Shown one piece after another: positions 1,899 through 43,214 of a stretch of 43,214 nucleotides of DNA. The position numbers and the translations under genes are program-made. Under the pieces are notes generated by a model. It was given only the letters and a program-made list of their open reading frames with translations, had not been told where the DNA came from and did not search any database. Each line of letters begins with the position of its first letter. Position 1 is the stretch's first letter. The DNA comes from Candidatus Adlerbacteria bacterium RIFCSPHIGHO2_12_FULL_53_18 (GTDB lineage Bacteria; Patescibacteriota; Minisyncoccia; Phycocordibacterales; SBAW01). Where the stretch lies: assembly GCA_001775475.1 (NCBI GenBank), contig MEWW01000017.1, positions 1 to 43,214 on the forward strand, given 5' to 3'.

Positions 1899-2350
1899 GT
1901 AACAAACAATTTACGGCAGGAGTGGCGGTGGTAGCGGCGGTCGCGGTCGTACTTCTCTTTTTTGTGTTTGGCAATCCGTTTGCAGCGGTCGAGCAAGGGC
2001 TCACGGCAAATACGATAGGCAGCGTGGGGGGCCAGCTCCTCGTACAGGACGAGGTTGTTGGTACCGGAGCGGAGGCCTCGATAGGCAGCATCGTCTCAGT
2101 GCACTACACCGGCATGTTTCAGGACGGTGCGGTGTTTGACAGCTCGGAGGGCGGTCAGCCGTTCCAGTTTGTGATAGGGGCGGGGCAGGTGATACCGGGG
2201 TGGGACCAGGGCCTGCAGGGTATGAGGGTCGGCGGTACGCGGCTCCTTGTTATCCCGCCCGACCTCGCTTACGGTGCACAAGGCTACGGACCGATACCGC
2301 CAAACGCAACACTCGTATTTGAAGTTGAGTTGATTGCTATTGAAGAGTAA
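1895..2350 (+). CDS. FKBP-type peptidyl-prolyl cis-trans isomerase
   Basis: VHYTG, FDSS, VIPGWDQG, LAYG and IPPNATLVFEVEL motifs; N-terminal anchor; ATGA overlap with the upstream gene. Confidence 0.95.
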   Translation: MSNKQFTAGVAVVAAVAVVLLFFVFGNPFAAVEQGLTANTIGSVGGQLLVQDEVVGTGAEASIGSIVSVHYTGMFQDGAVFDSSEGGQPFQFVIGAGQVIPGWDQGLQGMRVGGTRLLVIPPDLAYGAQGYGPIPPNATLVFEVELIAIEE

Positions 2351-2369
2351 CGAAGGCACACTTCGTCCG

Positions 2370-3623
2370 ATGCGTCCGATTTCGTTTGAGATAACAAAAA
2401 GTGCCGGCCCGCTCTCTAGGGCCGGTGTTTTGTACACTCCGCATGGGGCTATCGAGACGCCTGCGTTTGTGGCCGTTGCCACCAAAGCCAACGTCAAAGG
2501 AGTACCTTCAACCGCGTTTCAGGCGCTTGGCGTACAAGGGATAATTGCCAACACCTACCACCTCTACCTCTCCGGGCTCGAGGCTATTGAAAAAGCCGGC
2601 GGGGTGGGGAAGTTTATGGCTTTTAGCGGCCCCACCATGACCGACTCGGGGGGATTCCAGGTATTTTCGCTGGGAGTGGGGTTTGGCAAAAAAATATCAA
2701 AGTTCCTTCCGGAGGAGAACCCTTTTCTCCGGAGAGATGAACGGCACTCCTCCGAAAAGGGTTCTCCTCCTCCAGCAGTTTGGGATGAGGATTTGGCAAC
2801 AAGCCATGGCAAGCTCGCAATTATAGATGAAGAAGGAGTTTCCTTTACCTCTCACCTCGATGGCACCCTGCATCGCTTTACCCCCGAGCGCTCAGTTGAA
2901 ATACAACACCAGCTTGGCGCCGACATTATTTTTGCCTTCGACGAGTGCACCGCCCCCGATGCCGAGTACGACTACCAAAAAGAGGCGATGGACCGGACGC
3001 ACCGGTGGGCGGAGCGCTCTCTCAAAGCGCACCGACAGAACGTACAGAAAAACAATGAACAAGGAATCTACGGCATCGTACAAGGAGGGCGGTATGCCGA
3101 CTTGCGTGTGCAAAGTGCCAAAGAAATTGCGGGGATGGACTTTGACGGCTTTGGCATTGGTGGTTCTTTCAGCAAACAGGATATTTTAGGGATTTTAGAT
3201 AAGGTCAACAACGAACTACCAAAAGAAAAGCCGCGGCATTTGCTTGGCATCGGCGAGCCCGAAGATATTTTTATCGGCGTTGCCGCAGGCTGTGATACGT
3301 TTGACTGTGTCTTGCCAACTCGCAACGGCCGCACGGGCGGCATCTATACGCGCGGGGGTAAGATTCAAATTCCAAACGCCGAGTACAGAGAAGACTTTTT
3401 GCCGCTCGACAAAGGCTGCGGGTGTCCAGTATGCCAGACGTACACCCGCGCCTACGTTCACCACCTTTTTCGCACCAAAGAGTTGCTCGGGCCCGTGCTT
3501 GCCAGCCAGCACAACCTCTACTTTTTGACCAACCTCGCCAAACAGATTCGTAATGCGCTCCTTGACGGAACATTCGAAAAGTTTCGGGATGATTTTTTGG
3601 CAAAGTATCGGTTGACGAAGTAG
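2370..3623 (+). CDS. tgt: Queuine tRNA-ribosyltransferase
   Basis: TPHG..ETP, NTYHL, TDSGGFQ, GIVQGG, FDCVLPTRNGR and CxCxxC motifs. Start set at ATG 2370. Confidence 0.95.
   Translation: MRPISFEITKSAGPLSRAGVLYTPHGAIETPAFVAVATKANVKGVPSTAFQALGVQGIIANTYHLYLSGLEAIEKAGGVGKFMAFSGPTMTDSGGFQVFSLGVGFGKKISKFLPEENPFLRRDERHSSEKGSPPPAVWDEDLATSHGKLAIIDEEGVSFTSHLDGTLHRFTPERSVEIQHQLGADIIFAFDECTAPDAEYDYQKEAMDRTHRWAERSLKAHRQNVQKNNEQGIYGIVQGGRYADLRVQSAKEIAGMDFDGFGIGGSFSKQDILGILDKVNNELPKEKPRHLLGIGEPEDIFIGVAAGCDTFDCVLPTRNGRTGGIYTRGGKIQIPNAEYREDFLPLDKGCGCPVCQTYTRAYVHHLFRTKELLGPVLASQHNLYFLTNLAKQIRNALLDGTFEKFRDDFLAKYRLTK
2711..2770. repeat. In-frame palindromic element inside tgt
   Basis: Perfect 17-bp inverted repeat GGAGGAGAACCCTTTTC (2711-2727) / GAAAAGGGTTCTCCTCC (2754-2770), inner stem GGAG/CTCC around loop AGATGAACGGCA, TCC on both flanks. 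Confidence 0.85.
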
Positions 3624-3639
3624 GGTATGAGGCTATAGT
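3612..3639 (+). promoter_or_regulatory. Sigma70-type promoter of the intergenic RNA
   Basis: TTGACG (3612-3617), 16 nt, TATAGT (3634-3639). Confidence 0.6.
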
Positions 3640-3644
3640 GAAGA

Positions 3645-3799
3645 AGTTGGCTGATCTTTGATTCGGTTTTTCCTCCCTCCGGGTTGGAGGTTAGCCGACT
3701 GTTCCCCTCTGGAAGGTGTTTGCCGTTCAGGTTGTTGACGCGGCAAGAACTGCCGGGTTTCACTTCGCGCGTTGCGATTTGGACCCGGCAACTTTTTTT
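3645..3799 (+). ncRNA. Candidate structured small RNA, family unknown
   Basis: 22-bp stem with 8 G-U pairs (3645-3666/3679-3700), branched domain 3701-3750, terminator stem 3751-3760/3781-3790 plus T7. Confidence 0.65.
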
Positions 3800-3819
3800 A
3801 AATCTGCTAAAGTAACCGG

Positions 3820-5844
3820 GTGGCCGATTTTAAAATCAAATCAAAGTACAAGCCCGCCGGCGACCAACCGAAGGCTATTTCAGCTTTAGTTAAGGGTCTT
3901 AAGGCGGGGGAGCGCCACCAAACCCTGCTCGGCGTCACCGGCTCCGGTAAGACCTTTACCGTTGCCAATGTTATAGAGGCGCTGCAGCGGCCGACCCTGG
4001 TTATCGCCCACAACAAAACGCTTGCGGCGCAGCTGGCGCAGGAGTATCGCGAGTTTTTCCCCGATGCGGCGGTGCACTACTTTGTCTCCTACTACGACTA
4101 CTACCAACCAGAAGCCTATATTCCGCACAGCGATACCTATGTTGAAAAAGAAGCGCAGATAAACGAAGAAATTGAGCGCCTGCGCCATGCCTCTACCCAA
4201 GCGCTCTTAACGCGTAAGGATGTGATTGTAGTCGCGTCGGTCTCGTGCATCTACGGCCTCGGCAACCCGGCAGAGTATGCTAAGTACCTGGTTGAGCTTA
4301 AGGTAGGGCAGAAGAAAAACCGCGCCGAGCTTATCCGCGAGCTTATCCATTTGTATTTTACGCGCACGACTGCCGATCTAACGCCGGGCGAGTTTAGAGC
4401 GCTCGGCAACTCGGTCGAAATACAGCCCGCCGGCGAGCGTGTGATCTACCGGATTGAGTTTGAAGGAGAAACAATTGCGAAAATCAGGATTATAGATGCG
4501 ATTACGCGGGTGGAGCGGGAGGAGAAGCAGTCGCTCACCCTATTCCCCGGCAAACACTACGTGACGCCGGAAGACGAAACGAAGCGCGCGATGGGGGAGA
4601 TTAAGCACGAACTTAAAGAGCAGTTGCTGAAGTTTGAACGGCAGGGCAAGGTGCTGGAGGCCGAGCGGCTCAAGCGTCGCACCAACCACGACCTGGCACT
4701 TATACGCGAGCTTGGCTACTGCAACGGGATAGAAAACTACTCAAGACACTTCGACGGTAGAGCGCCCGGCGAGCCCGCGTATTCGCTTTTAGACTACTTC
4801 CCGAAAGACTTTTTGACTATCATAGACGAGAGCCACGTCACCGTGCCGCAGATAGGCGGTATGTATGCTGGCGACCGCGCGCGCAAGGAAAATCTGATTG
4901 AGTACGGCTTCCGCCTGCCTTCTGCGGTCGACAATCGGCCGCTCATGTTCGAAGAGTTTGAAAAAAAAGTCGGGCAGGTTATATACACTTCTGCGACTCC
5001 GGGGCCTTATGAACGCGAAAAATCGGGCAAGCATATCGTCGAGCAGATTATCCGCCCGACCGGCCTGGTTGACCCACAAATAGATGTACGGCCTGTCATA
5101 GGCAAAGACGGCGTGAAAAGCCAGGTCGAAGACGTACTTGAGGAAGCGACAAGTACCATAGACCGTGGCGCGCGAGTGCTTATTACGACCCTCACCAAAA
5201 AAATGGCCGAAGACTTATCAGAGTTTCTTAAAGACCGGGGCTACAAAGCAGCCTATCTCCACAGCGACATTGAGACCCTGGAGCGGATTACAACTTTAAC
5301 CGACCTGCGTAAGGGTACGTACGACGTGTTGGTGGGCGTTAACCTCCTGCGAGAGGGGCTGGACTTGCCGGAGGTGGAGCTGGTGGCGATTTTAGACGCC
5401 GACAAAGAGGGCTTTTTGCGCAGCGAGGTGTCCCTGATACAAACTATTGGCCGCGCGGCGCGCAACGTGGCGGGGCGAGTCATCCTTTATGCCGACCAGG
5501 AAACGCCCTCGCTTAAAAAGGCGGTCGGGGAGACCAACCGACGCCGCGCGGTGCAGGTTGCCTACAACAAAGAGCACGGCATCACGCCACAAACTATAAA
5601 GAAGAACATCAAAGACATTACCGAAGAGCTCCGGAGCGAACACGGCAAGGCGGTGCAAGAGATGATTACGATTGAGCAGAAGCTCTACAAAGAAAACCCG
5701 CGCAAATTCTTGAGCGAAAAACGCACCCAGATGGCCGAGGCGGTCAAAAACCTCGACTTCGAAACTGCAGCTTTAATCCGTGATGAAATTTATGCTCTGA
5801 CGGGAAGGGAAAAGAAGAAAACCGCTAGTAGACGCGCTAAATAA
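3820..5844 (+). CDS. uvrB: Excinuclease ABC subunit B
   Basis: GDQP, GVTGSGKT, YYDYYQPEAY, DESH, QTIGRAARN and C-terminal UVR motif. Confidence 0.98.
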   Translation: MADFKIKSKYKPAGDQPKAISALVKGLKAGERHQTLLGVTGSGKTFTVANVIEALQRPTLVIAHNKTLAAQLAQEYREFFPDAAVHYFVSYYDYYQPEAYIPHSDTYVEKEAQINEEIERLRHASTQALLTRKDVIVVASVSCIYGLGNPAEYAKYLVELKVGQKKNRAELIRELIHLYFTRTTADLTPGEFRALGNSVEIQPAGERVIYRIEFEGETIAKIRIIDAITRVEREEKQSLTLFPGKHYVTPEDETKRAMGEIKHELKEQLLKFERQGKVLEAERLKRRTNHDLALIRELGYCNGIENYSRHFDGRAPGEPAYSLLDYFPKDFLTIIDESHVTVPQIGGMYAGDRARKENLIEYGFRLPSAVDNRPLMFEEFEKKVGQVIYTSATPGPYEREKSGKHIVEQIIRPTGLVDPQIDVRPVIGKDGVKSQVEDVLEEATSTIDRGARVLITTLTKKMAEDLSEFLKDRGYKAAYLHSDIETLERITTLTDLRKGTYDVLVGVNLLREGLDLPEVELVAILDADKEGFLRSEVSLIQTIGRAARNVAGRVILYADQETPSLKKAVGETNRRRAVQVAYNKEHGITPQTIKKNIKDITEELRSEHGKAVQEMITIEQKLYKENPRKFLSEKRTQMAEAVKNLDFETAALIRDEIYALTGREKKKTASRRAK

Positions 5845-5874
5845 TTTTAGCTACTCTACATTTTTGGCTAATGG

Positions 5875-5909
5875 CTCCGGGCGGCGCGGCAGCTGCCCGG
5901 AGATTTTTT
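5875..5909 (+). terminator. Intrinsic terminator after uvrB
   Basis: CTCCGGGCGGC/GCTGCCCGGAG stem followed by ATTTTTT. Confidence 0.7.
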
Positions 5910-5952
5910 ATGCTATTATTAGATAAACAAATCAATACATTTTTTAGGGACT

Positions 5953-6393
5953 ATGATACCAAAAAAAATCGTAGCAGTGTCAGGAGGTTTTGATCCTATA
6001 CATATTGGGCACGTACGCATGCTTGAAGAGGCCAAAAAGCTCGGCGACGAGCTTGTGGTTATACTCAACAACGACCACTGGCTTGTAAACAAAAAGGGTT
6101 TTGCGTTTATGCCGGAGCATGAGCGCAAGGAGGTGATAGAGGCAATTAAACATGTCGATCGCGTTATAATTTCTGACCATACGCTCGGCGATGAAGACCG
6201 CAGCGTTTGCCGTATCTTGCGCGACCTTAGACCCCATATTTTTGCAAACGGAGGCGACCGCAAACCAGATGGCGACCCGGTGCCTGAGGTAATGCTTTGT
6301 GAAGAACTTGGCATTGAGATGATTTATAACGTAGGTCGCGACGGCAAGGTGCAGTCGAGCTCGTGGCTCACCGAGCGCGTGAAGAAAAAGTAG
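5953..6393 (+). CDS. Cytidylyltransferase-family protein (HIGH; glycerol-3-phosphate cytidylyltransferase-like)
   Basis: GGFDPIHIGH, ERKEVI, ANGGDR and SSS motifs. Confidence 0.85.
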   Translation: MIPKKIVAVSGGFDPIHIGHVRMLEEAKKLGDELVVILNNDHWLVNKKGFAFMPEHERKEVIEAIKHVDRVIISDHTLGDEDRSVCRILRDLRPHIFANGGDRKPDGDPVPEVMLCEELGIEMIYNVGRDGKVQSSSWLTERVKKK

Positions 6394-6461
6394 TTTTGTG
6401 CTATATTTAAGTTGTGTATAGGTACCCCCCAGAGCAGCTGCGGGGGATTTATCGCGTATAT

Positions 6462-9041
6462 ATGCAAGACTCGATCAACATCAAAGGGGCTAAGACCCAC
6501 AATTTAAAAAACATCTCGTTGACGATACCTCGCAATAAGATGGTCATTTTTACGGGGCTTTCCGGCAGCGGCAAGTCTTCTTTGGCGTTCGACACCATTT
6601 TTGCCGAGGGCCAGCGCCGCTACGTCGAGAGCCTTTCTGCCTATGCCCGCCAGTTCCTCCGCCAGATGCAGAAGCCCGATGTCGAGGAGATTACCGGCCT
6701 CTCTCCGGCGATTTCTATCGATCAAAAAAGCCGCTCCAACAACCCGCGCTCAACCGTGGCGACCATTACAGAGATTTACGACTATCTGCGCGTCTTGTAT
6801 GCCCGTGTGGGCAAGCCGCACTGTCCGGTGTGCGGCCGCGAAATAAAAAAGCACTCAAACGAAGAGATTATCCAAAGCGTTATCCAAAGCGTTACAAAAA
6901 ATGCGCCCAAAAAGACCAAGAAAGTAATGGGAGTTGAAATTAATGAGGACACCGTGCGCATTTTTGCGCCGGTTGTCGTGGGCCGCAAAGGCGAGTACTA
7001 CCAGCTCTTATACGACTTGCTGGGCAAGGGGTTTGAGAAGGCCAAGATCGACGGCGAGATTAAAAGCTTGCGTGAGCGGGTTACACTCTCTAAGTATAAA
7101 AAGCACGACATTGATGCCCTAGTAGACGAAATTTTGGTAACCGACTTCGCAAAGCAGAAACAAGCCGCACTCGAGCGCCTCTCTGAGGCGGTAGAGCGCG
7201 CTCTCCACGAGAGCGACGGGTTGGTAAAGATAGAGGACACACAGGGCTCGCGGCTTATATCGGCCAAGTTTATGTGCCCGTATGACGGGTTTTCTTTCCC
7301 CGAAGTGGAGCCGCGGCTTTTCTCCTTTAACTCACCCTACGGCGCTTGCCCCGAGTGCAACGGCCTCGGCACCAAGCACTTTATGGGCTCGGAGCCGTGC
7401 CCCGTATGCAAGGGCGCGAGGCTCCGCCCGGAGGCGCTCAATGTCTGGCTAGGAGAAAAAATAAACATTGTAGACGTCTCTTCGCTTTCTATAAAAGACG
7501 CCTACGACTTTTTTGACAAACTAAAACTTTCCAAAAAAGATCAGGAGATTTCGAAGTCCGTAATCAGGGAAATCACCTCGCGGCTAAGGTTTATGCTCAA
7601 CGTGGGGCTCGACTACCTCACCCTCGACCGTCGCGCCAACACGCTCTCCGGCGGCGAAGCGCAGCGCATAAGGCTCGCCAGCCAGCTCGGGAGTGGCCTC
7701 GTGGGTGCGCTCTACGTCTTGGACGAGCCGACCATCGGCCTCCATCAACGCGACAACGAGCGGCTGATTAAAACCCTTCTCAACCTGCGCGACCTTGGCA
7801 ACACCATTTTAGTCGTCGAGCACGACGAGGACACTATTTACTCGGGCGACTACCTGGTGGACATCGGTCCGGGCGCCGGTATCCACGGCGGCGAGATAGT
7901 CGTTGCGGGCGAGCTCGACAAGCTCTTAACCGCTAAAAAAAACGATAGCGGCTCTGTTACACTCGCGTACCTGCGCGGAGAGAAGGCAATAGCGGTGCCT
8001 GAAGAGCGTCGCGAGAAAGACAAAGGGTTTTTAAAAATTGCTGGTGGCAAGGCGTACAATATCGAAAATTTGAACTGCGAAGTGCCGCTTGGACGTACGG
8101 TTGCCGTAACCGGTGTCTCGGGCTCGGGGAAGTCGACGTTTCTCTACGATATCTTGTACGAAAACCTGCGTGCCCGTTTTGACAAGCGTTACCGCACCAA
8201 CAAGGTTTACAATGCGGCGCGCTTTGAGGGCACGGAGCACCTTTCGCGCGCGATTTTGATTGACCAAAGCCCTATCGGCCGCACGCCTCGTAGCAACCCG
8301 GCAACCTATACCGGTGCCTTTACCTTTGTACGAGACCTTTTTGCCGAAACCGCCGAGGCGCGGGCGCGCGGATGGAAGTCTAACCGCTTTTCCTTTAACG
8401 TGCCGCAGGCACGCGGAGGTGGGCGTTGTGAGGCGTGCGAGGGCAACGGTGTTATCGCGGTTGAGATGTCCTTTTTGCCCACGGTCTACGTTACCTGTGA
8501 CCTCTGCAACGGGAAGCGTTTTATGAAAGAAACCCTGGAAGTGAAGTACAAGAAGAAAAACATTTATGATATTTTGGAGATGTCTATCGAGGAGGCAATT
8601 GCGTTCTTTCAGGACATACCTGCGATTTATGACCGGCTCCGCACGCTCGAAGAGGTGGGGCTGGGCTACTTGAAGCTCGGGCAAAGCGCCACGACCCTTT
8701 CCGGCGGCGAAGCACAGCGGGTGAAAATCTCTTCCGAGCTCTACAAGCCGCACCTGCAAAAAACTATTTATCTTCTTGATGAGCCGACGGTTGGTCTGCA
8801 CTACGAAGACGTGCAAAAGTTGATAGACATCCTGAATCGCCTGGTCAATGCCGGCAACTCTGTCGTGCTTATCGAGCACAACATGGACATTATTAAAAAC
8901 GCCGACTGGCTCCTCGACTTCGGCCCCGAGGGTGGGGTAGGGGGTGGCAAGCTCGTTGCTAAGGGGACGCCGGAAATGATAGCAAACAGCAAACACTCAC
9001 ATACAGGAAAATATTTGAAGCGGGTGTTAGGAGGAAAATAG
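6462..9041 (+). CDS. uvrA: Excinuclease ABC subunit A
   Basis: Two Walker A motifs (GLSGSGKS, GVSGSGKS), two LSGGEAQR signatures, zinc fingers. Start at MQDSINIKGA (6462). Confidence 0.97.
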   Translation: MQDSINIKGAKTHNLKNISLTIPRNKMVIFTGLSGSGKSSLAFDTIFAEGQRRYVESLSAYARQFLRQMQKPDVEEITGLSPAISIDQKSRSNNPRSTVATITEIYDYLRVLYARVGKPHCPVCGREIKKHSNEEIIQSVIQSVTKNAPKKTKKVMGVEINEDTVRIFAPVVVGRKGEYYQLLYDLLGKGFEKAKIDGEIKSLRERVTLSKYKKHDIDALVDEILVTDFAKQKQAALERLSEAVERALHESDGLVKIEDTQGSRLISAKFMCPYDGFSFPEVEPRLFSFNSPYGACPECNGLGTKHFMGSEPCPVCKGARLRPEALNVWLGEKINIVDVSSLSIKDAYDFFDKLKLSKKDQEISKSVIREITSRLRFMLNVGLDYLTLDRRANTLSGGEAQRIRLASQLGSGLVGALYVLDEPTIGLHQRDNERLIKTLLNLRDLGNTILVVEHDEDTIYSGDYLVDIGPGAGIHGGEIVVAGELDKLLTAKKNDSGSVTLAYLRGEKAIAVPEERREKDKGFLKIAGGKAYNIENLNCEVPLGRTVAVTGVSGSGKSTFLYDILYENLRARFDKRYRTNKVYNAARFEGTEHLSRAILIDQSPIGRTPRSNPATYTGAFTFVRDLFAETAEARARGWKSNRFSFNVPQARGGGRCEACEGNGVIAVEMSFLPTVYVTCDLCNGKRFMKETLEVKYKKKNIYDILEMSIEEAIAFFQDIPAIYDRLRTLEEVGLGYLKLGQSATTLSGGEAQRVKISSELYKPHLQKTIYLLDEPTVGLHYEDVQKLIDILNRLVNAGNSVVLIEHNMDIIKNADWLLDFGPEGGVGGGKLVAKGTPEMIANSKHSHTGKYLKRVLGGK

Positions 9042-9072
9042 AAAAGAGCCGGCGGATTCCGGCTCTTCGTTC
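9042..9072. terminator. Terminator between convergent uvrA and small ORF
   Basis: AAGAGCCGG/CCGGCTCTT stem with A-rich and T-rich flanks. Confidence 0.65.
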
Positions 9073-9084
9073 TGCATGAGCAGT

Positions 9085-9270
9085 TCAGGCATGCAATTCA
9101 GAATCTCCCTGTTCCTGCGCCTGAAGTGCTTTTTTTGCCTTCCGCCATATTCGTGCGGGCTTCTTCTCCCGCAGAAGTTCTTGGCGGCGCTTCCGAATCA
9201 TTGCTGAGGTCGGCTCTCGCCCAAAAGGTTGGCGAAAAGCAATCTCTGCGACATCTTTTTTGATGCTCAT
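9085..9270 (-). CDS. Small basic hypothetical protein
   Basis: MSIKKDVAEIAF... with GGGAG upstream and a terminator downstream. Confidence 0.5.
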   Translation of the reverse strand: MSIKKDVAEIAFRQPFGREPTSAMIRKRRQELLREKKPARIWRKAKKALQAQEQGDSELHA

Positions 9271-9355
9271 GACATGTGCTCCCGTTATGGTGAAGTGAAG
9301 ACCAAATTCATACACAAAGTATCACTCTTATGGTACAATGTCAAATATAGCCTCT

Positions 9356-10678
9356 ATGACCCTCGAGCAATTCAAGAAAATAGCCAAAAAAATGCCTGAC
9401 ACGCCGGGGGTGTATTTCTTTTTGGATAAGGCTAAAAAAGTGCTCTACATCGGTAAGGCAACCAGCCTGCGCGACCGCGTGCGCAGCTACTTTGCTAAGG
9501 ATCTTATCGCTACCCGCGGGTCGCTTATCACCTCCATGATAGAAAAGGCACACTCAGTTGACTGGCGCGAAGTGGACTCGGTATTGGAGGCGCTTATTTT
9601 GGAGGCAAACCTAATAAAAAATTACAAACCGAAGCACAATACCGACCTCAAAGACGACAAAAGCTGGAACTACGTCGTTATTACGAAGGAAGACTTTCCG
9701 CGGGTGCTTCTTGTGCGGGGGAAGGAGCTAGCGGAGCAGAGGCTCCGCAAAGGTCCTCCGCTTAGGGGAGATAAACGGCACCCCTTCGCGAAGGACTTTG
9801 CTTCGCCGTCATATACAACGTTACATACTTTTGGCCCCTTTCCTCATGGCCTACAGCTCAGAGAGGCGATGAAGCTTATTCGCAAGATATTTCCATATCG
9901 CGATACCTGCATCCCTTGCGAAGTTTTAACGAAGCAGGGCAAACCTTGCAAACCATGTTTCAATGTTCACCTCGGCCTCTGCCCCGGTGTCTGCTCGGGT
10001 GAGATTTCAAAAACAGAGTACCGTAAAATAATCCGCAATATTTCACTCCTTTTTCAGGGCAAAAAGAAGACACTGGTAGTGGTGCTCAAGAGGGAAATGA
10101 AACAGGCGGCTAAAAGTGAACGGTTTGAGGAGGCGGCGCGGCTGCGCAAGCAGATTTTTGCGCTCGAGCATATCCGCGACATTTCGCTTATTAAAGAGGA
10201 GTATCGGCGCCCTCAGATAGAACTCGGGGTAAACCGAATTGAGGCCTACGACATCGCGCACCTGCGCGGCTCGAGCAACGTGGGCGTGATGACAGTGGTG
10301 GAGAACGGTGAGGCGCAAAAAAATGAGTACCGTAAATTCAGAATCCGCACCGCGAATGCAGGCGACGACGTAGGAGCTCTGCGCGAGGTGTTGACCCGCC
10401 GGCTCGGGCACGACGAGTGGCCTATGCCGCGCATTATTGTGGTAGACGGCGCTGCGGCGCAGATAAACGCTGCAGAGCGTGTGCTGAAAAGTTATGGAGT
10501 GGCAATACCAGTAGTTGGGGTGGTAAAAGACGAAAAGCACCGCCCGCGCGACATCCGCGGCAACCGAGATTTAATTAAAGGTCGCGAGCGCGACATCCTT
10601 CTTGCCAACGCCGAAGCACACCGGTTTGCAATAAGCTATCATCGCAAGAGCTCCCGTGCGCAATTTAATCCTCAATAA
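9356..10678 (+). CDS. uvrC: Excinuclease ABC subunit C (no C-terminal HhH2)
   Basis: GIY-YIG (PGVYFF...YIGKA..LRDRV.SY), Cys cluster, UVR domain, RNase H-like EAYDI/VDG motifs. Start taken at 9356 because TGGTACAAT overlaps ATG 9338. Confidence 0.9.
   Translation: MTLEQFKKIAKKMPDTPGVYFFLDKAKKVLYIGKATSLRDRVRSYFAKDLIATRGSLITSMIEKAHSVDWREVDSVLEALILEANLIKNYKPKHNTDLKDDKSWNYVVITKEDFPRVLLVRGKELAEQRLRKGPPLRGDKRHPFAKDFASPSYTTLHTFGPFPHGLQLREAMKLIRKIFPYRDTCIPCEVLTKQGKPCKPCFNVHLGLCPGVCSGEISKTEYRKIIRNISLLFQGKKKTLVVVLKREMKQAAKSERFEEAARLRKQIFALEHIRDISLIKEEYRRPQIELGVNRIEAYDIAHLRGSSNVGVMTVVENGEAQKNEYRKFRIRTANAGDDVGALREVLTRRLGHDEWPMPRIIVVDGAAAQINAAERVLKSYGVAIPVVGVVKDEKHRPRDIRGNRDLIKGRERDILLANAEAHRFAISYHRKSSRAQFNPQ
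9731..9801. repeat. In-frame palindromic element inside uvrC
   Basis: Hairpin GCGGAGC-AGAG-GCTCCGC, then GCAAAGGTCCT...AGGGG-AGATAAACGGCA-CCCCT...AGGACTTTGC. The loop matches the tgt element at 11/12. Confidence 0.75.
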
Positions 10679-17828: not shown

Positions 17829-17830
17829 GT

Positions 17831-17906
17831 CCCGTTAGAGACCCGCATATACACTATGTCTGATAAAATTTCACCACAAAGAAAAAGTTCCTTAGTCTCT
17901 AACGGG
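17831..17906. mobile_element. 76-bp MITE-like element with 12-bp terminal inverted repeats and 6-bp target duplication
   Basis: CCCGTTAGAGAC (17831-17842) / GTCTCTAACGGG (17895-17906), flanked by ATGAGT at 17825-17830 and 17907-17912. Confidence 0.85.
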
Positions 17907-18269
17907 ATGAGTACGTTACAGAACTATAGTATCGGCTTCCTGCTCTCAATCGCGTTTACGCTCGCGGCTTTTTGGCTCGTGTGGCAGCACGTACAGGGCG
18001 CGGCGCTGTTCTCTGCAGAAAAGCTTGTCGTGCTGTTGGTGGGGCTCGCCGTAGCTCAGCTCTACGTCCAGCTTATCTGCTTTTTGCATCTGGGGGCCGA
18101 GAAGCAGAGGCCGCGATGGAGCCTCATCATTTTTGCCTTTGCCGCGGTTGTCGTTGTGGTGCTCGTGGGCGGCACTATCTGGATTATGTACCACCTAGAC
18201 CGGGGTCATACTGATCTTTCGGAAATTTATCCAAGCGGCACGGTTTCGCCCCAAACCCAGGATGATTAG
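17907..18269 (+). CDS. cyoD: Cytochrome bo3 quinol oxidase subunit IV
   Basis: Y.IGF.LS..FT..AF, AVAQL.VQL.CFLH and GTIWIM motifs. Original start is ATG 17907; in-frame ATG 17856 lies within the MITE. Confidence 0.9.
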   Translation: MSTLQNYSIGFLLSIAFTLAAFWLVWQHVQGAALFSAEKLVVLLVGLAVAQLYVQLICFLHLGAEKQRPRWSLIIFAFAAVVVVVLVGGTIWIMYHLDRGHTDLSEIYPSGTVSPQTQDD

Positions 18270-24440: not shown

Positions 24441-24511
24441 TTTCGCACGTGCGAAAAAAGTGAATAAACGCGCATACACCACTCTTAAGCTATAGCGTAA
24501 GAGTGGTGTAT
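24441..24511. promoter_or_regulatory. Two DNA palindromes, candidate protein-binding sites
   Basis: TTTCGCACGTGCGAAA (24441-24456, perfect) and ATACACCACTCTTA-AGCTATAGCG-TAAGAGTGGTGTAT (24474-24511). Confidence 0.5.
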
Positions 24512-25253: not shown

Positions 25254-25326
25254 CGAACACTCCCGTGGTTGTGTTGAAGATCGTTCATGTTTACATAGCT
25301 AAAATTCCGGCACAAAGTCAAATTTG

Positions 25327-25362
25327 ATATTGACGCTCTTCATGAAGAAATCTCGAATATTT
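25327..25362. repeat. 36-bp direct repeat, left copy
   Basis: ATATTGACGCTCTTCATGAAGAAATCTCGAATATTT; 35/36 identical to 27846-27881. Confidence 0.9.
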
Positions 25363-27726: not shown

Positions 27727-27845
27727 CTCTTTGGCCTTTCTTGCGGTTGGATTGACAAAAAGGAGAATAATTACAATGTCCAAGTCTCTCGCAATTTTAA
27801 CCTATAAAACATGTTTTGTAAATGAAGCTGATTTTGCCTATTTTA

Positions 27846-27881
27846 ATATTGACGCTCTTCATGAAGAAATCCCGAATATTT
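27846..27881. repeat. 36-bp direct repeat, right copy
   Basis: ATATTGACGCTCTTCATGAAGAAATCCCGAATATTT. Confidence 0.9.
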
Positions 27882-28309: not shown

Positions 28310-30016
28310 ATGAAACGACTTTTAGTTAGCGCAGGTACGCTGATCTTCATCGGCGCAGTTGCAATCAGCGCAACAGGCGCATTCTTTAGCGACACTGAAA
28401 CGTCGACAGGGAACACGTTTGCAGCAGGAGAGCTCGATCTCACGATTGACAACACCAGCTACGGGTTTGATTGGAACGATCCGTTAGCTACAAACCCGAC
28501 AGGTGTATGGGGACTTAACGCAGCCAACTCATGGCAACTCGCAGACCTCACGAACCAGCTATTCTTTAGCTTCGATGACCTTAAACCGGGAGATTACGGT
28601 GAGGACACCATCTCGCTCCATGTGCAAAACAACGCATGGGCATGTATGGCTCTTGATCTCACTGGAACACCAGAAAATGGTGTCAACGAGCCGGAAGCCG
28701 ACTTCCCAGACCTTACTGTCGGTGCTGACGAGGGTGAGCTCCAGAATTACCTCTCGTTCCTCTTCTGGAACGACGACGGCGACAATGTTCTTGAGACTGG
28801 AGAGACGGTAATTCCGGAATTAAGTGGCCTTCCGGGCTCTGCCTTTACTGGCAACTGGCTCGCGATTGCAGACCAAGGCGACACGCCACTTCAAGCTGGC
28901 ACGACGACGTGGATTGGCAAGGGTTGGTGCTTTGGCACGATGACCCCAAATCCAGTTGTGCAAGACAATGCATCCTCAAGTCCTCCTGTGGCGCCGGATC
29001 GCATCGGCTTTACCTGCAACGGTGCAGGCGACCACAACATCGCACAGACCGACGGTATCGTTGTAGACGTCCACTTCTACGCAGAGCAGTCAAGAAATAA
29101 TCCAAACTTCTTGTGCTCACAACTCCCTCCGCCTGATGGTCGCCAAGTCGTTGGTGCAGCAGCTGCAACATATGACGATCCTGCAATCTGTAATGTAACA
29201 GTTGACCTCGGCGAATCGCTCCAAGCTGCTATTGATGTGGCTGCTCCGGGAGACACAATTTGTGTTGATCCGACATATACAGGTGTGGGTGACGTTGCAA
29301 GTGTGATTGAAGTTAATGAACTTAATCTAACCATTGCAGGTCTTGGCGCAGCGGGCGCCGCAACGGTCAGCAAGGGTCTTCACATTGACGCAAATGGTGT
29401 AACGATCAAAGGCTTGACACTCAACGCGCACCCTCTCATCGAGGCTAGCGAACAAGCGGCGATCTACATTAATTCTGCGATCACAGGTACTACTATCACT
29501 CATAACCTGATTGATGGTCCTCCAGGCGCTATCGCGGCCAATGCTAAGGGCATCATCACGGAGATCGGGAACGATGGAACAGCAGGTGCTTCTGGCATCC
29601 TGGTTGCCCACAACCTGATTCGTGGCTGGAATCAGGGCATCTTCTTCAACACAGCAAACGCTGAAGTTAGATTCAACGACATCTATGCAAACACAGTGGG
29701 TGTTGCAAATGATGGCCCGCACAACACAACAATTCACCACAACGACTTCGACGGTAACACTGCCGAGGCCGTTGGTGTAGCTCCTTCCGCCAATAACGGA
29801 ACAGCTAACAATGGTGACTTGGATGTAAATACAAACAACTTCACTCCGGCGGGAGCAGGGAATAATGTAAATCATTATCTTGCTTCAGTTGTAGGAGGTG
29901 CAGATGTAAATGCTACGAATAACTTCTGGGATAGTGAAGTCGAAGCAGATAGGACAAATGTTCCTGCTGAGGTAGATACTTCATCTCCTGCAGCAGTAGC
30001 GTTCCCTGAAAACTAG
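28310..30016 (+). CDS. TasA/CalY-like SipW-processed protein with C-terminal parallel beta-helix
   Basis: TGAFFSDTETSTGNTFAAG SipW-class N-terminus, LKPGD core motif, then SLQAAIDVAAPGDTI and Asn-ladder beta-helix repeats. Confidence 0.85.
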   Translation: MKRLLVSAGTLIFIGAVAISATGAFFSDTETSTGNTFAAGELDLTIDNTSYGFDWNDPLATNPTGVWGLNAANSWQLADLTNQLFFSFDDLKPGDYGEDTISLHVQNNAWACMALDLTGTPENGVNEPEADFPDLTVGADEGELQNYLSFLFWNDDGDNVLETGETVIPELSGLPGSAFTGNWLAIADQGDTPLQAGTTTWIGKGWCFGTMTPNPVVQDNASSSPPVAPDRIGFTCNGAGDHNIAQTDGIVVDVHFYAEQSRNNPNFLCSQLPPPDGRQVVGAAAATYDDPAICNVTVDLGESLQAAIDVAAPGDTICVDPTYTGVGDVASVIEVNELNLTIAGLGAAGAATVSKGLHIDANGVTIKGLTLNAHPLIEASEQAAIYINSAITGTTITHNLIDGPPGAIAANAKGIITEIGNDGTAGASGILVAHNLIRGWNQGIFFNTANAEVRFNDIYANTVGVANDGPHNTTIHHNDFDGNTAEAVGVAPSANNGTANNGDLDVNTNNFTPAGAGNNVNHYLASVVGGADVNATNNFWDSEVEADRTNVPAEVDTSSPAAVAFPEN

Positions 30017-30022
30017 TCCTCT

Positions 30023-30064
30023 CTAGCCGAATCCAGCACTAACACTTAGTGCTGGGCGGGCTAG
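30023..30064 (+). other. Intercistronic stem-loop after the first TasA-like gene
   Basis: CTAGCC..CCAGCACTAA-CAC-TTAGTGCTGG..GGCTAG with no U-tract. Confidence 0.55.
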
Positions 30065-30118
30065 GTGGGATTTATTCCTAGCGTCGTTGGATTAATTAAT
30101 AGTTTTTACTAACTCAGT

Positions 30119-31618
30119 ATGAAAAGGATACTCTTGGGCACAGTTACGATAGTAGGGGCACTTGCAGCAATGTATATCGGGGTGACGGGCGCGTTTTTTA
30201 GCGACACAGAGACAAGTACCGGCAACACCTTTGCCGCCGGCGCGATTGACCTCTTGGTTGATAACGAGTCGTACTACAACGGCAATGTATGCGCCGAGAC
30301 GGCTCCTGACAGCGGCATTTGGCAATGGCAAGGCAATGCATTGTTTCCTGTCCCCGGCACCGAGTGCGACACGAGCTGGGAACTCGACAACTTAACCGGA
30401 CACCTCTTCTTTAACTTTACCGACATCAAGCCTGATGATGAAGGCGAAGACACTATCTCCCTGCACGTAAACACCAACGACGCTTATATGTGTATGAACA
30501 TTGCTCTCACAGAGAATGATGACAATAACACAACCGAGCCCGAGGGCTTGGTAGACCCAACCGCCAACCCCGACACCGAATGGGATGGCGAGCTCGCGCA
30601 GACTCTACAAATGGTCTGGTGGGCTGACGACAGCGACAATGTGCTGGAGCACGGCGAGACAATACTTACGGGCGACGGAACCGTTGTCGGCGGTGTTGAA
30701 ACCTTGTTTAACCTCGCCTCAACCAGCGGGCCGTTTGTGGTGGCGCTGGCAGACTCTGAAAACAATGTATGGGACCCACAGAATCCGGGTCCAGTACCGG
30801 GTGAAGAAACTCGCTACATCGGCAAGGCATGGTGCTTTGGCACACTGACTATCAGCCCTGTTCCATTTGACACTGGAGTGAGTCCTGCAGTTGACCCAGG
30901 GGTGTTATGCGACGGAACATTGCTTGGCAACGAAACCCAGACCGACAGCGCTCTGCTCGACGTGACGTTTGACGCAGTGCAGGCGCGCAACAATCCGGAT
31001 TTTGTGTGTCTCGAAGATGAGTGCACCTTCAACGAGCAGGTAGACCTGCTTGTTGCAACCGCTAAGTTTGAGAATCCGGAGGTAACTACCGCTCAAAACT
31101 GGGACGTCTTCGGCTCGCCGGTAGACGGCTGGAACGTTGATTGGCGCGGCGATATACCAGCAACCTTTGGCCCGCAAAATCGTCCGGCAGTCGCCAACCT
31201 TGAGTACCACGAAGGTGTCCTTGGTGCGGCGTTTGAGGGCGACCAGTATGCTGAGCTCGACTCCGACTGGGGAGGCCCTTCAGACGCGGGCACTGGTGAA
31301 CCGGCTTCTGTAAGTATCTATCGCAACTTTGTAACGGTGCCGGGTGCGCAGTACTTGCTCAAGTATCACTTCTCGCCACGTCCTAACACTCCAGCAGCAG
31401 ATAACAATCTTGAAGCAAAAGTAGAAGGTGTTGCACTTAACACCACGGGCCCAACTGCGGGCGGTGGAGCAATTGCATGGAGTGAAATTGTGGTCCCATT
31501 TATCGCTGGTGATGCAAGCACTGAAATCCGCTTTACCGACCTTGGTACCGCAAACTCGCTCGGTACATTCCTCGACAATGTTCGCTTGTACCAGATCAGC
31601 TGTCCGGTGGTGCAATAG
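30119..31618 (+). CDS. TasA/CalY-like SipW-processed protein with C-terminal DUF642/galactose-binding-like domain
   Basis: Same TGAFFSDTETSTGNTFAAG N-terminus, IKPDD core, C-terminal FE.P...EGDQYAELD...GTFLDNV jelly-roll pattern. Confidence 0.83.
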   Translation: MKRILLGTVTIVGALAAMYIGVTGAFFSDTETSTGNTFAAGAIDLLVDNESYYNGNVCAETAPDSGIWQWQGNALFPVPGTECDTSWELDNLTGHLFFNFTDIKPDDEGEDTISLHVNTNDAYMCMNIALTENDDNNTTEPEGLVDPTANPDTEWDGELAQTLQMVWWADDSDNVLEHGETILTGDGTVVGGVETLFNLASTSGPFVVALADSENNVWDPQNPGPVPGEETRYIGKAWCFGTLTISPVPFDTGVSPAVDPGVLCDGTLLGNETQTDSALLDVTFDAVQARNNPDFVCLEDECTFNEQVDLLVATAKFENPEVTTAQNWDVFGSPVDGWNVDWRGDIPATFGPQNRPAVANLEYHEGVLGAAFEGDQYAELDSDWGGPSDAGTGEPASVSIYRNFVTVPGAQYLLKYHFSPRPNTPAADNNLEAKVEGVALNTTGPTAGGGAIAWSEIVVPFIAGDASTEIRFTDLGTANSLGTFLDNVRLYQISCPVVQ

Positions 31619-31650
31619 TTCTACCCGCTAATGTTCTCTCAACAATCTGA

Positions 31651-32667
31651 ATGAGAGCCGCAACCCACAAATCTTTGGTGGCGAGAGCACTCCTTGTAGC
31701 AGGGGTACTCTCGCTTGCATCCGGATTGTTTGTAGTGCGTGCGCAGGAGCCAGAGAGCACCTATGCCCGCTCGTACAGCTATCACAGTTTTGACCTTACC
31801 GTAGACAGTGAGGCCTCTTACAACGGGGTGCCGTGGCCTGATGGCACGTGGGACTTAAAAGACCTAAAGCCGTGGAAGGACAAGTTTTGGAACTTTGGCG
31901 ACATCAAGCCGGGCGACAAGGGGGAGAACACGATTAGCCTCCATGTAAACAAAGACGCCTGGGTGTGTCTCGAGTTCTTAAACTTAAAGGAGCAGGAGAA
32001 CGGCGAAAACGAACCGGAGTCTTTAGACGACAACAGTGCGCCCAGCGAAGGCGAGCTAGCCGACCAGATGGAGTTTTTTGCCTGGCACGACGACGGCGAC
32101 AACATTTTTCAAGTAGGGGAGATACCGATTTTTGGCACGACGACCCAGGCCGCCACGCAAGTGTTAAACAACAAGGTGTACCCTATAGCCGACTACACAC
32201 ATGGCCCGGCAATCCCCAAAAACCAGACCAAGTACTTCGGTGTGTATTGGTGCGCGGGCAACCTCACGGTTGACGTTGCAACGGCTTTTCTAGCCTGCGA
32301 CGGCTCTGCCATGAACAACGACTCGCAGACCGACAGCATGTCGGTGGATGTGCAGCTGGTTGCCGTGCCCAAAAATGACAAGCCGAAGTTTACCTGCGAC
32401 AAAATCGTAGTGCCGCCGCCGGGCGAGCAGTGCGAGGTGGGCAAGGTGGAAATAAAGGTGGAGAACAACGCCGTAATCATCAACAACACATCCTCAAACA
32501 GCAACACTGGAGACAACTCGGCGGGCCCGGGCGGCACGGTAACTACCGGCAATGCGAGTTCAAATTCAAATACGATCAACGTGGTTAACACGACCATAAT
32601 CCAAAACGGGGGCACCAGCACTTCGAGCATCATCAACATCCTGCAAAATATGATCAGACGGCGATAA
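31651..32667 (+). CDS. TasA-like core protein lacking the SipW N-terminal motif, Asn/Thr-rich tail
   Basis: Shares DIKPGD.GE.TISLHV, EPE, GEL, W.DDGDN, WC.G and QTD with the two upstream paralogues, but has an ordinary VRA signal peptide. Confidence 0.78.
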   Translation: MRAATHKSLVARALLVAGVLSLASGLFVVRAQEPESTYARSYSYHSFDLTVDSEASYNGVPWPDGTWDLKDLKPWKDKFWNFGDIKPGDKGENTISLHVNKDAWVCLEFLNLKEQENGENEPESLDDNSAPSEGELADQMEFFAWHDDGDNIFQVGEIPIFGTTTQAATQVLNNKVYPIADYTHGPAIPKNQTKYFGVYWCAGNLTVDVATAFLACDGSAMNNDSQTDSMSVDVQLVAVPKNDKPKFTCDKIVVPPPGEQCEVGKVEIKVENNAVIINNTSSNSNTGDNSAGPGGTVTTGNASSNSNTINVVNTTIIQNGGTSTSSIINILQNMIRRR

Positions 32668-36095: not shown

Positions 36096-36200
36096 TTTCG
36101 CTGAATTGGTCTTCGAAAAGTCCTCGGTTCTCCCGTCTCGCGCCGCTCTCTGCGGAGCGTCCTCGCGGGCCAGACTTTTCTCACACCAATTCCAGCTCCA
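36096..36200. repeat. 105-bp structured intercistronic repeat, copy 1 (atpE-atpF)
   Basis: Core GAAAAGTCCTCGG.TCTCCCGTCTCGCGCCGC...CCTCGCGGGCCAGACTTTT shared with 40769-40873. Confidence 0.9.
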
Positions 36201-40768: not shown

Positions 40769-40873
40769 TTTCGCTACTTGATTCCTTGAAAAAGTCCTCG
40801 GGTCTCCCGTCTCGCGCCGCCTCCTGCGGGGCGGCCTCGCGGGCCAGACTTTTTCTCGGAACAAGTAGCTCCA
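40769..40873. repeat. 105-bp structured intercistronic repeat, copy 2 (atpD-atpC)
   Basis: Same core as 36096-36200 with a different but still complementary outer stem. Confidence 0.9.
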
Positions 40874-43136: not shown

Positions 43137-43160
43137 TTCGGCCGTAAAATATCCATACAT

Positions 43161-43180
43161 TATAATTAAGCTATAGCTTA
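43161..43180 (+). promoter_or_regulatory. TATAAT -10 followed by a perfect 14-bp palindrome
   Basis: TATAAT (43161-43166) then TAAGCTATAGCTTA (43167-43180), before an ATG at 43187 or 43191. Confidence 0.5.
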
Positions 43181-43214
43181 CAAATAATGTATGGGGAGAT
43201 TGGAAAGGGAACAT

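Follow-up and report, generated by a model that had tools for sequence, protein, structure and literature searches.

An in-frame hairpin in a patescibacterial tgt gene is a copy of a genus-restricted and likely mobile DNA repeat family

The tgt gene in the window (i.e., the whole stretch of 43,214 nucleotides analyzed here) carries, in frame, a 60-bp DNA hairpin, which is one copy of a DNA repeat family (family A) with members of 60 - 90 bp that is restricted to the genus and likely mobile. The explanation that we favor, with good confidence, is that these repeats are non-autonomous mobile hairpins, one of which would have come to lie in frame in a tolerant loop of Tgt, where it would be read out as a peptide predicted to be disordered. 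The features of the tgt locus are as follows.

2370..3623, + strand: tgt, encoding a tRNA-guanine transglycosylase of 417 aa; intact host gene (match to TIGR00430 above the cut-off)
2711..2770, no strand assigned: hairpin element, family-A copy of 60 bp (inverted-repeat search, DNA and RNA folds)
2711..2727, + strand: left arm, 17 bp; its first 7 nt correspond to the ancestral host codons (P)-E-E
2731..2750, + strand: conserved core, with an inner GGAG/CTCC helix and the loop AGATGAACGGCA; family signature GGRGAGATRAACGGCACYCC
2754..2770, + strand: right arm, 17 bp; perfect reverse complement of the left arm
2718..2774, + strand: stretch of 19 foreign codons, corresponding to Tgt residues 117-135, as compared to 7 codons at this place in short alleles

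The two perfect arms are separated by a spacer of 26 nt, and the hairpin is flanked by TCC on both sides (2708-2710 and 2771-2773). It represents the only perfect arm pair of at least 17 bp (with a spacer of at most 80) in the window, and no such pair occurred in 200 triplet shuffles. The DNA fold of positions 2700-2785 reached -22.5 kcal/mol (z = -3.8), a value equaled by none of 200 shuffles, and the RNA fold of the hairpin was also strong (z = -3.3 as compared to shuffles). Contigs from other public DNA runs, some of which are possibly the window's own source, span the hairpin with zero differences (X4, 2417-2945; X5, 2670-2899); as the hairpin is identical in separately assembled contigs, it is no assembly artefact. 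These analyses confirmed that the hairpin is real and located in frame in an intact tgt gene and that, as claimed in an earlier note on this DNA, a 60-bp element with a perfect 17-bp inverted repeat encodes the peptide given there.

The hairpin lies within a full-length coding gene, and no variation is seen across 31 Tgt orthologues in the DSGGFQ motif, in D191 and D312, or in the C350/C352/C355/H381 cluster. In an AlphaFold model built with an alignment (used instead of a single-sequence run, which was uninformative with a pLDDT of 38), the mean pLDDT was 83 and only residues 97-148, which include the insert, had a pLDDT below 50. The insertion is thus predicted by the model to be compatible with the Tgt fold. 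Even when it carries no insert, the loop is already far longer than in solved Tgt structures.

In the genus, 56 of 61 genomes gave a Tgt match, and we compared the loop among the 30 best-scoring loci. Fourteen of these loci have short, conserved loops of 13 - 14 residues and 16 have long loops of 17 - 41 residues; significant hairpins (i.e., folds matched by at most 1 of 200 shuffles) are found in 13 of the 16 long loops as compared to none of the 14 short ones. The inserts in congeners represent several unrelated hairpin families, as judged by eye, and occur in both orientations; orthologues encoding the same peptide with no palindrome, which the earlier note had considered as the contrary case, were not seen. 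Compared to the short orthologous allele, the net gain at the window's tgt is 12 codons (36 nt; 26 versus 14 aa) and not the indel of approx. 21 aa that had been expected from the sequence, though insertions of +21 aa were found in uvrC, mpg and mnmA.

A 63-bp insertion with a TCC duplication, which is how the 63 bp with TCC on both sides of the earlier note may be read, is likewise unsupported at tgt. The ancestral host codons L-P-E-E account for the left TCC as well as for the first 7 nt of the left arm; the left TCC thus looks like host sequence, and the right arm therefore ends in an inverted copy of host sequence. Loci L005 and L008 present the opposite case, in which the right host flank is mirrored on the left. 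As the arms at these two loci and in the window contain inverted host flank, we infer that one arm may have been copied onto the other by template switching after insertion. Such arm-to-arm copying would pull flanking host codons into the stem and would erase the original ends and any duplication.

When the loop was left out of the Tgt tree, long alleles were interleaved with short ones, with the sister pairs L004/L015 (100/99) and L005/L007 (97/93). Monophyly was rejected for the short alleles (p-AU = 6 × 10-5) and for the family-A alleles (p-AU = 4 × 10-69), and the tree shows 8 state changes, a number that is possibly inflated by allele exchange or recombination between lineages and that includes kin which are not independent. 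A single origin is rejected by this tree, and among the loci compared the tgt loop is shown to be a hotspot that has been filled repeatedly by differing hairpin families. These results bear on the possibility that a single ancient insertion in the tgt loop was lost in some lineages and overwritten in place through recombination with other repeats. Most long alleles are indeed alike in their right junction, which ends in P-A-V, and in their length (26 - 32 aa), and one genomic copy with family-A ends and another core (C6:41151, see below) indicates that cores may be exchangeable. Considering the rejected monophyly, the same pattern in uvrC and mpg, and the conserved 14-residue sequence of the short alleles in both main clades, which independent deletions would not recreate, we nevertheless regard a single ancient insertion as very unlikely. 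As a separate observation, Tgt matches are split near residues 113-147 in four genomes (G021, G038, G046 and G054), which suggests that this loop holds longer inserts there; in G041 and G051, the split is located near residue 224.

In the genome to which the window belongs (G000; 540 kb, 89% complete), the core GGRGAGATRAACGGCACYCC has 6 exact occurrences, as compared to none in 5 Markov-shuffled genomes, and a total of 9 family-A copies is reached with close variants. Further copies with the loop AGATRAACGGCA, predicted in the earlier note, were thus found (6 exact, 9 with close variants), and so was the coding-compatible palindrome family that it had proposed for the lineage, as 4 of the 9 copies are in frame, i.e., in tgt, uvrC, mpg (methylpurine glycosylase) and polA (DNA polymerase I), and the family is dispersed across the genus. 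A sister core was present in 34 of 80 genus genomes (family-A copies thus occurring in 35 when G026 is included), with no match to a control pattern, and was not found in 198 genomes representing other families of the same order. We collected 96 distinct copies from the genus genomes (pattern hits and orthologue loci) and 86 further copies from metagenomes, in unrelated genes and intergenic sites. An exact-core scan of GTDB yielded 11 hits as compared to approx. 9 expected by chance; only two of these are family hairpins, both from one congener genome. Viral contigs searched with two patterns gave no match.

Family-A copies share a conserved loop and inner helix, followed by a small internal loop and a stem whose sequence varies freely. 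Part of the family also has the ends GCTNCGC-AAAA and TTTT-GCTNCGC; GCTNCGC ends are common among copies from genus genomes, rare among metagenome copies and missing from the tgt copy. From the filled and empty orthologous sites we infer that family A is likely mobile. A contrary view would be that nothing has moved and that the hairpin is a chance palindrome built from tgt sequence by local template switching, in line with an outer stem that is partly host-derived; this is hardly conceivable, being refuted by the dispersed copies of the core (96 in genomes and 86 in metagenomes, with no match to a reversed control pattern).

Other repeats were also observed. A second hairpin family (core GTCCTCGG.TCTCC ... 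GGCCAGACTTT) has two apparently intergenic copies in the window, at positions 36111-36179 and 40785-40853; in congeners, relatives of this second family occupy loops of tgt, polA and mpg (L013, L024, L027, L101, L103, L111 and L120). A 108-bp element elsewhere in the genome (L087; G000:C6:41151-41258) combines the family-A ends GCTACGCAAAA and TTTTGCTACGC with a different core, which suggests that several cores may share one end system. Palindromes of a further family, with arms CCCGTTAGA ... TCTAACGGG and variable spacers, some of which look as if they held a gene start, occur at window positions 17830-17907 as well as at G000:C14:1470-1551 and C5:23468-23538, and palindromes centered on AAGCTATAGCTT are repeated in the genome (window 24474-24511 and 43152-43193; G000:C13:1143). 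The window also contains a 40-bp direct repeat (25323-25362 and 27842-27881; 95% identical, 2.5 kb apart), which brackets two ORFs and could mark an integrated segment, and, at 28310-32667, three tandem paralogous ORFs (568, 499 and 338 aa) with common repeated DNA blocks.

A second family-A copy in the window is located in uvrC.

9338..10678, + strand: uvrC, host gene of the second copy (profile search)
9742..9806, + strand: family-A copy of 65 bp, the second described here; GCTNCGC is present at either end, and the copy keeps the uvrC reading frame (+21 aa compared to a 17-aa empty loop)

The genes tgt, uvrB, uvrA and uvrC are clustered at window positions 2334-10678, and family-A copies are present in two of the four. 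The filled uvrC loop has 38 aa here as compared to 17 aa when empty; the corresponding numbers are 27 and 6 aa for mpg and 47 and 26 aa for mnmA. The polA linker has 57 residues here and approx. 40 in many orthologues, and is too variable for a clean count. Overall, 42 of the 96 copies are located within identified genes, i.e., tgt (11 copies), uvrC (7), mpg (4), HhH-GPD glycosylases (4), ileS (3), tsaD, recG, mnmA, pnp and ligA (2 each), and leuS, dus and a SAM methyltransferase (1 each), some of the tgt, uvrC and mpg assignments being based on the flanking peptide or an orthologue search instead of Pfam. Among the 86 metagenome copies, 34 are located in the same gene set plus polA, and one is in parB.

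Each of the 15 different host genes with an annotation encodes a product that acts on DNA or RNA, a count that leaves out copies spanning long unannotated ORFs (L206, L319, L341, L386 and others), which could include hosts unrelated to nucleic acids. This frequency was significantly greater than among the annotated ORFs in a 99-ORF sample of G000 (31 of 64 nucleic-acid related; P = 1 × 10-4, Fisher test) and among the annotated neighbors of intergenic copies (30 of 55; P = 6 × 10-4, Fisher test), with gene classes sorted by hand and the methyltransferase counted as RNA-acting in both test and background. Among the non-coding copies, 28 of 54 have a same-strand ORF that ends 22 - 39 nt before the core (hand count). 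The intergenic copies L033, L196, L215, L229, L244 and L249 share a PIF1-like helicase gene as their neighbor across several genomes, and this recurrence indicates that there are intergenic hotspots too. We propose that inserts would persist mainly between genes, often adjoining stop codons, and that inserts within genes would persist only if the frame is kept and the loop is permissive, which would give rise to hotspots such as tgt and uvrC.

The left arm found its best complement in the right arm of the same copy in 85 of the 95 copies. In addition, a related strain carries the changes C2720T and G2761A, which affect exact pairing partners, one being silent and the other replacing Gly by Asp; this compensatory pair comes from one contig with a depth of 3.45 and 16 differences in 239 nt. 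Together, these comparisons show stems that stay complementary while their sequence drifts, with structure apparently kept at amino-acid cost. Copies in coding genes are mostly in sense orientation (36 sense versus 6 antisense, n = 42; 29 versus 5 in metagenomes). On the core strand, stem mismatches are mostly A.C (68 A.C versus 28 G.T; 72 versus 24 in the new metagenome copies), and the opposite strand therefore folds better (in 77 of 95 copies, as DNA). By position, A.C and G.T mismatches numbered 41 versus 9 at offsets -17 to -25 and 24 versus 30 (i.e., no bias) beyond -26; much of the bias is located at offsets -10 to -16 and is probably inherited. Copies antisense to the gene, with 7 A.C and 4 G.T mismatches, are too few to separate the element strand from the gene strand. 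These strand data fit a folded single-strand DNA substrate and also a selection for weaker mRNA hairpins; as a sign of strand-specific Y1 cleavage, the mismatch asymmetry is only suggestive.

Bacteria of the CPR are reportedly rich in rRNA insertions. Together with the strong RNA fold of the tgt hairpin, this might point to a small self-removing RNA intron, or a similar element, that is excised from the mRNA. Given that the mRNA strand is usually the weaker-folding one, that the copies in identified genes preserve the reading frame, contain no stop and are found in either orientation, that more than half of all copies are located outside identified genes, and that Rfam gave no match near the gathering score for the hairpin, excision from the mRNA is highly improbable.

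The host-gene bias (P = 1 × 10-4 for the 15 annotated hosts against the genomic background), the conserved core, the structure kept despite an amino acid change and the prevalence of one orientation (36 of 42 coding copies) would also be expected if the hairpins were host-selected regulatory sites, such as protein-binding or pausing signals of a repair and RNA-modification regulon, instead of selfish passengers. Yet unrelated hairpin families can stand in for one another at the same tgt loop, no hairpin is present there in 14 of 30 orthologues, both orientations and several frames are used, and the neighbors of intergenic copies are mixed. According to the available text of PMC3733652, REPs located inside genes also show a bias towards repair genes, and such a bias may reflect tolerance. 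Overall, we consider a regulatory origin unlikely and favor mobile hairpins retained in tolerant loops.

Family A resembles several known elements. Rickettsia palindromic elements (RPEs; Ogata et al. 2000, 2002, as summarized in the available text of PMC10969869 and PMC3733652) are dispersed palindromes of approx. 105 - 150 bp without coding capacity of their own; nearly half are in frame in unrelated conserved genes, and these sources give no known mobilizer. Family A likewise consists of dispersed palindromes, in frame in conserved genes and absent from orthologues. Unlike RPEs, family-A copies are shorter (60 - 90 bp), their stems vary freely around a conserved loop, their peptide is not conserved because several frames and both strands are used, and, within this genus, different families have come to refill one and the same loop. 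In NCBIfam and Pfam, which we take to contain RPE-named models, neither Tgt nor UvrC matched such a model, and no sequence link was seen. Family A works like RPEs and, judging by length, variable peptides and profile searches, is not a member of that group.

With REPs and REPINs (available text of PMC3733652 and PMC8266576), family A shares short hairpins, a conserved internal loop, an apparent strand preference and a frequent location just after stop codons or between convergent genes; in addition, REPs inside genes are described as enriched in DNA-repair and tRNA-handling genes (PMC3733652, in part). In contrast to these elements, no conserved GTAG or CGTC tag was found in the flanks of 25 copies with both canonical ends, and family A was not found beside RAYT-like genes, has a low copy number and has a far higher share of copies within genes (42 of 96). 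MITEs, as described in the available text of PMC10969869 and PMC3184786, are also small and non-coding, with terminal inverted repeats, filled and empty sites and in-frame fusions. Family A differs from these in that the flanks of canonical copies contain no consistent target-site duplication (later erosion of an original duplication being possible), that arm sequences vary between copies, and that no cognate IS sharing its ends was found among the Y1, GIY-YIG, IVP and DUF559 families searched. Finally, when read as its reverse complement, on the strand that folds better, the GCTNCGC end motif is identical to d(GCGNAGC) with a variable free position, a very stable and nuclease-resistant DNA mini-hairpin (PMC13037366, available text); this is a structural motif, not an element family, and is not enriched genome-wide here. 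A literature search that left subscription journals mostly outside its coverage found no description of in-frame palindromes in Patescibacteria; for other phyla, tgt or uvrC may be among the target genes listed in Additional file 3 of PMC3733652.

The earlier note had suggested looking for a nearby or unlinked HUH/RAYT/IS200 transposase. Candidate enzymes in G000 are two Y1/RAYT-like genes with other palindromes at their ends and one small GIY-YIG gene, which has no family-A copy nearby; four-helix IVP and DUF559 gave no match in this 89% complete genome. Across the genus, the family-A core was absent from all 32 Y1-transposase loci searched (of more than 130 Y1 matches), and Y1 genes with readable ends (a Y1 ORF was found at 17 of the 32 loci) are bracketed by other short palindromes. 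No transposase was found among 78 neighbors of intergenic copies, and the presence of Y1 genes does not track family A over 80 genomes (P = 0.10); a linked transposase is thus not supported, and the Y1, GIY-YIG, IVP and DUF559 searches did not reveal a mobilizer. Close filled and empty pairs, mapped apart from the nth-frr site and three leuS loci, gave no clean junctions. By analogy with REPs (PMC8266576, available text), the best single guess is an unlinked HUH enzyme acting in trans; the moving form of the element would be a single DNA strand in its folded state, which a host-encoded enzyme of the HUH/Y1 type would most likely copy in trans, and we regard the HUH assignment as tentative, with the odds somewhat against it. 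Doublet palindromes of the form AAGG-N5-CCTT are also numerous in the genome (e.g., G000:C6:10050, C6:16934, C7:34781, C10:12171, C16:56323, C10:32385, C10:59117 and C11:8835); the Y1/RAYT-like gene on C4 has one such unit at its 3' end, and in congeners units of this kind are found on both sides of Y1 genes, which makes them candidates for true REPs.

A more far-reaching version of these ideas would be a transposase-free system of single-stranded DNA hairpins in Patescibacteria that is actively steered into, and kept in, DNA- and RNA-handling genes, in which several unrelated families compete for the same loops, structure is maintained against the protein sequence, and hairpins have been domesticated as strand-specific signals on the template strand of repair and tRNA-modification genes; we think it improbable that all of this holds. 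Palindromes that code for part of a protein have been described chiefly in Rickettsia and in a few species rich in REPs. While this kind of element is thus already known, the data presented here add that the same loops are refilled repeatedly by different families, that there is a bias in the host genes, and that structure appears to be maintained. As the genus offers many natural filled and empty alleles, refilled by different families, insertion preference, tolerance and arm homogenization would be directly testable, and insertions of this type may represent a route to fast loop turnover in core enzymes of very small genomes.
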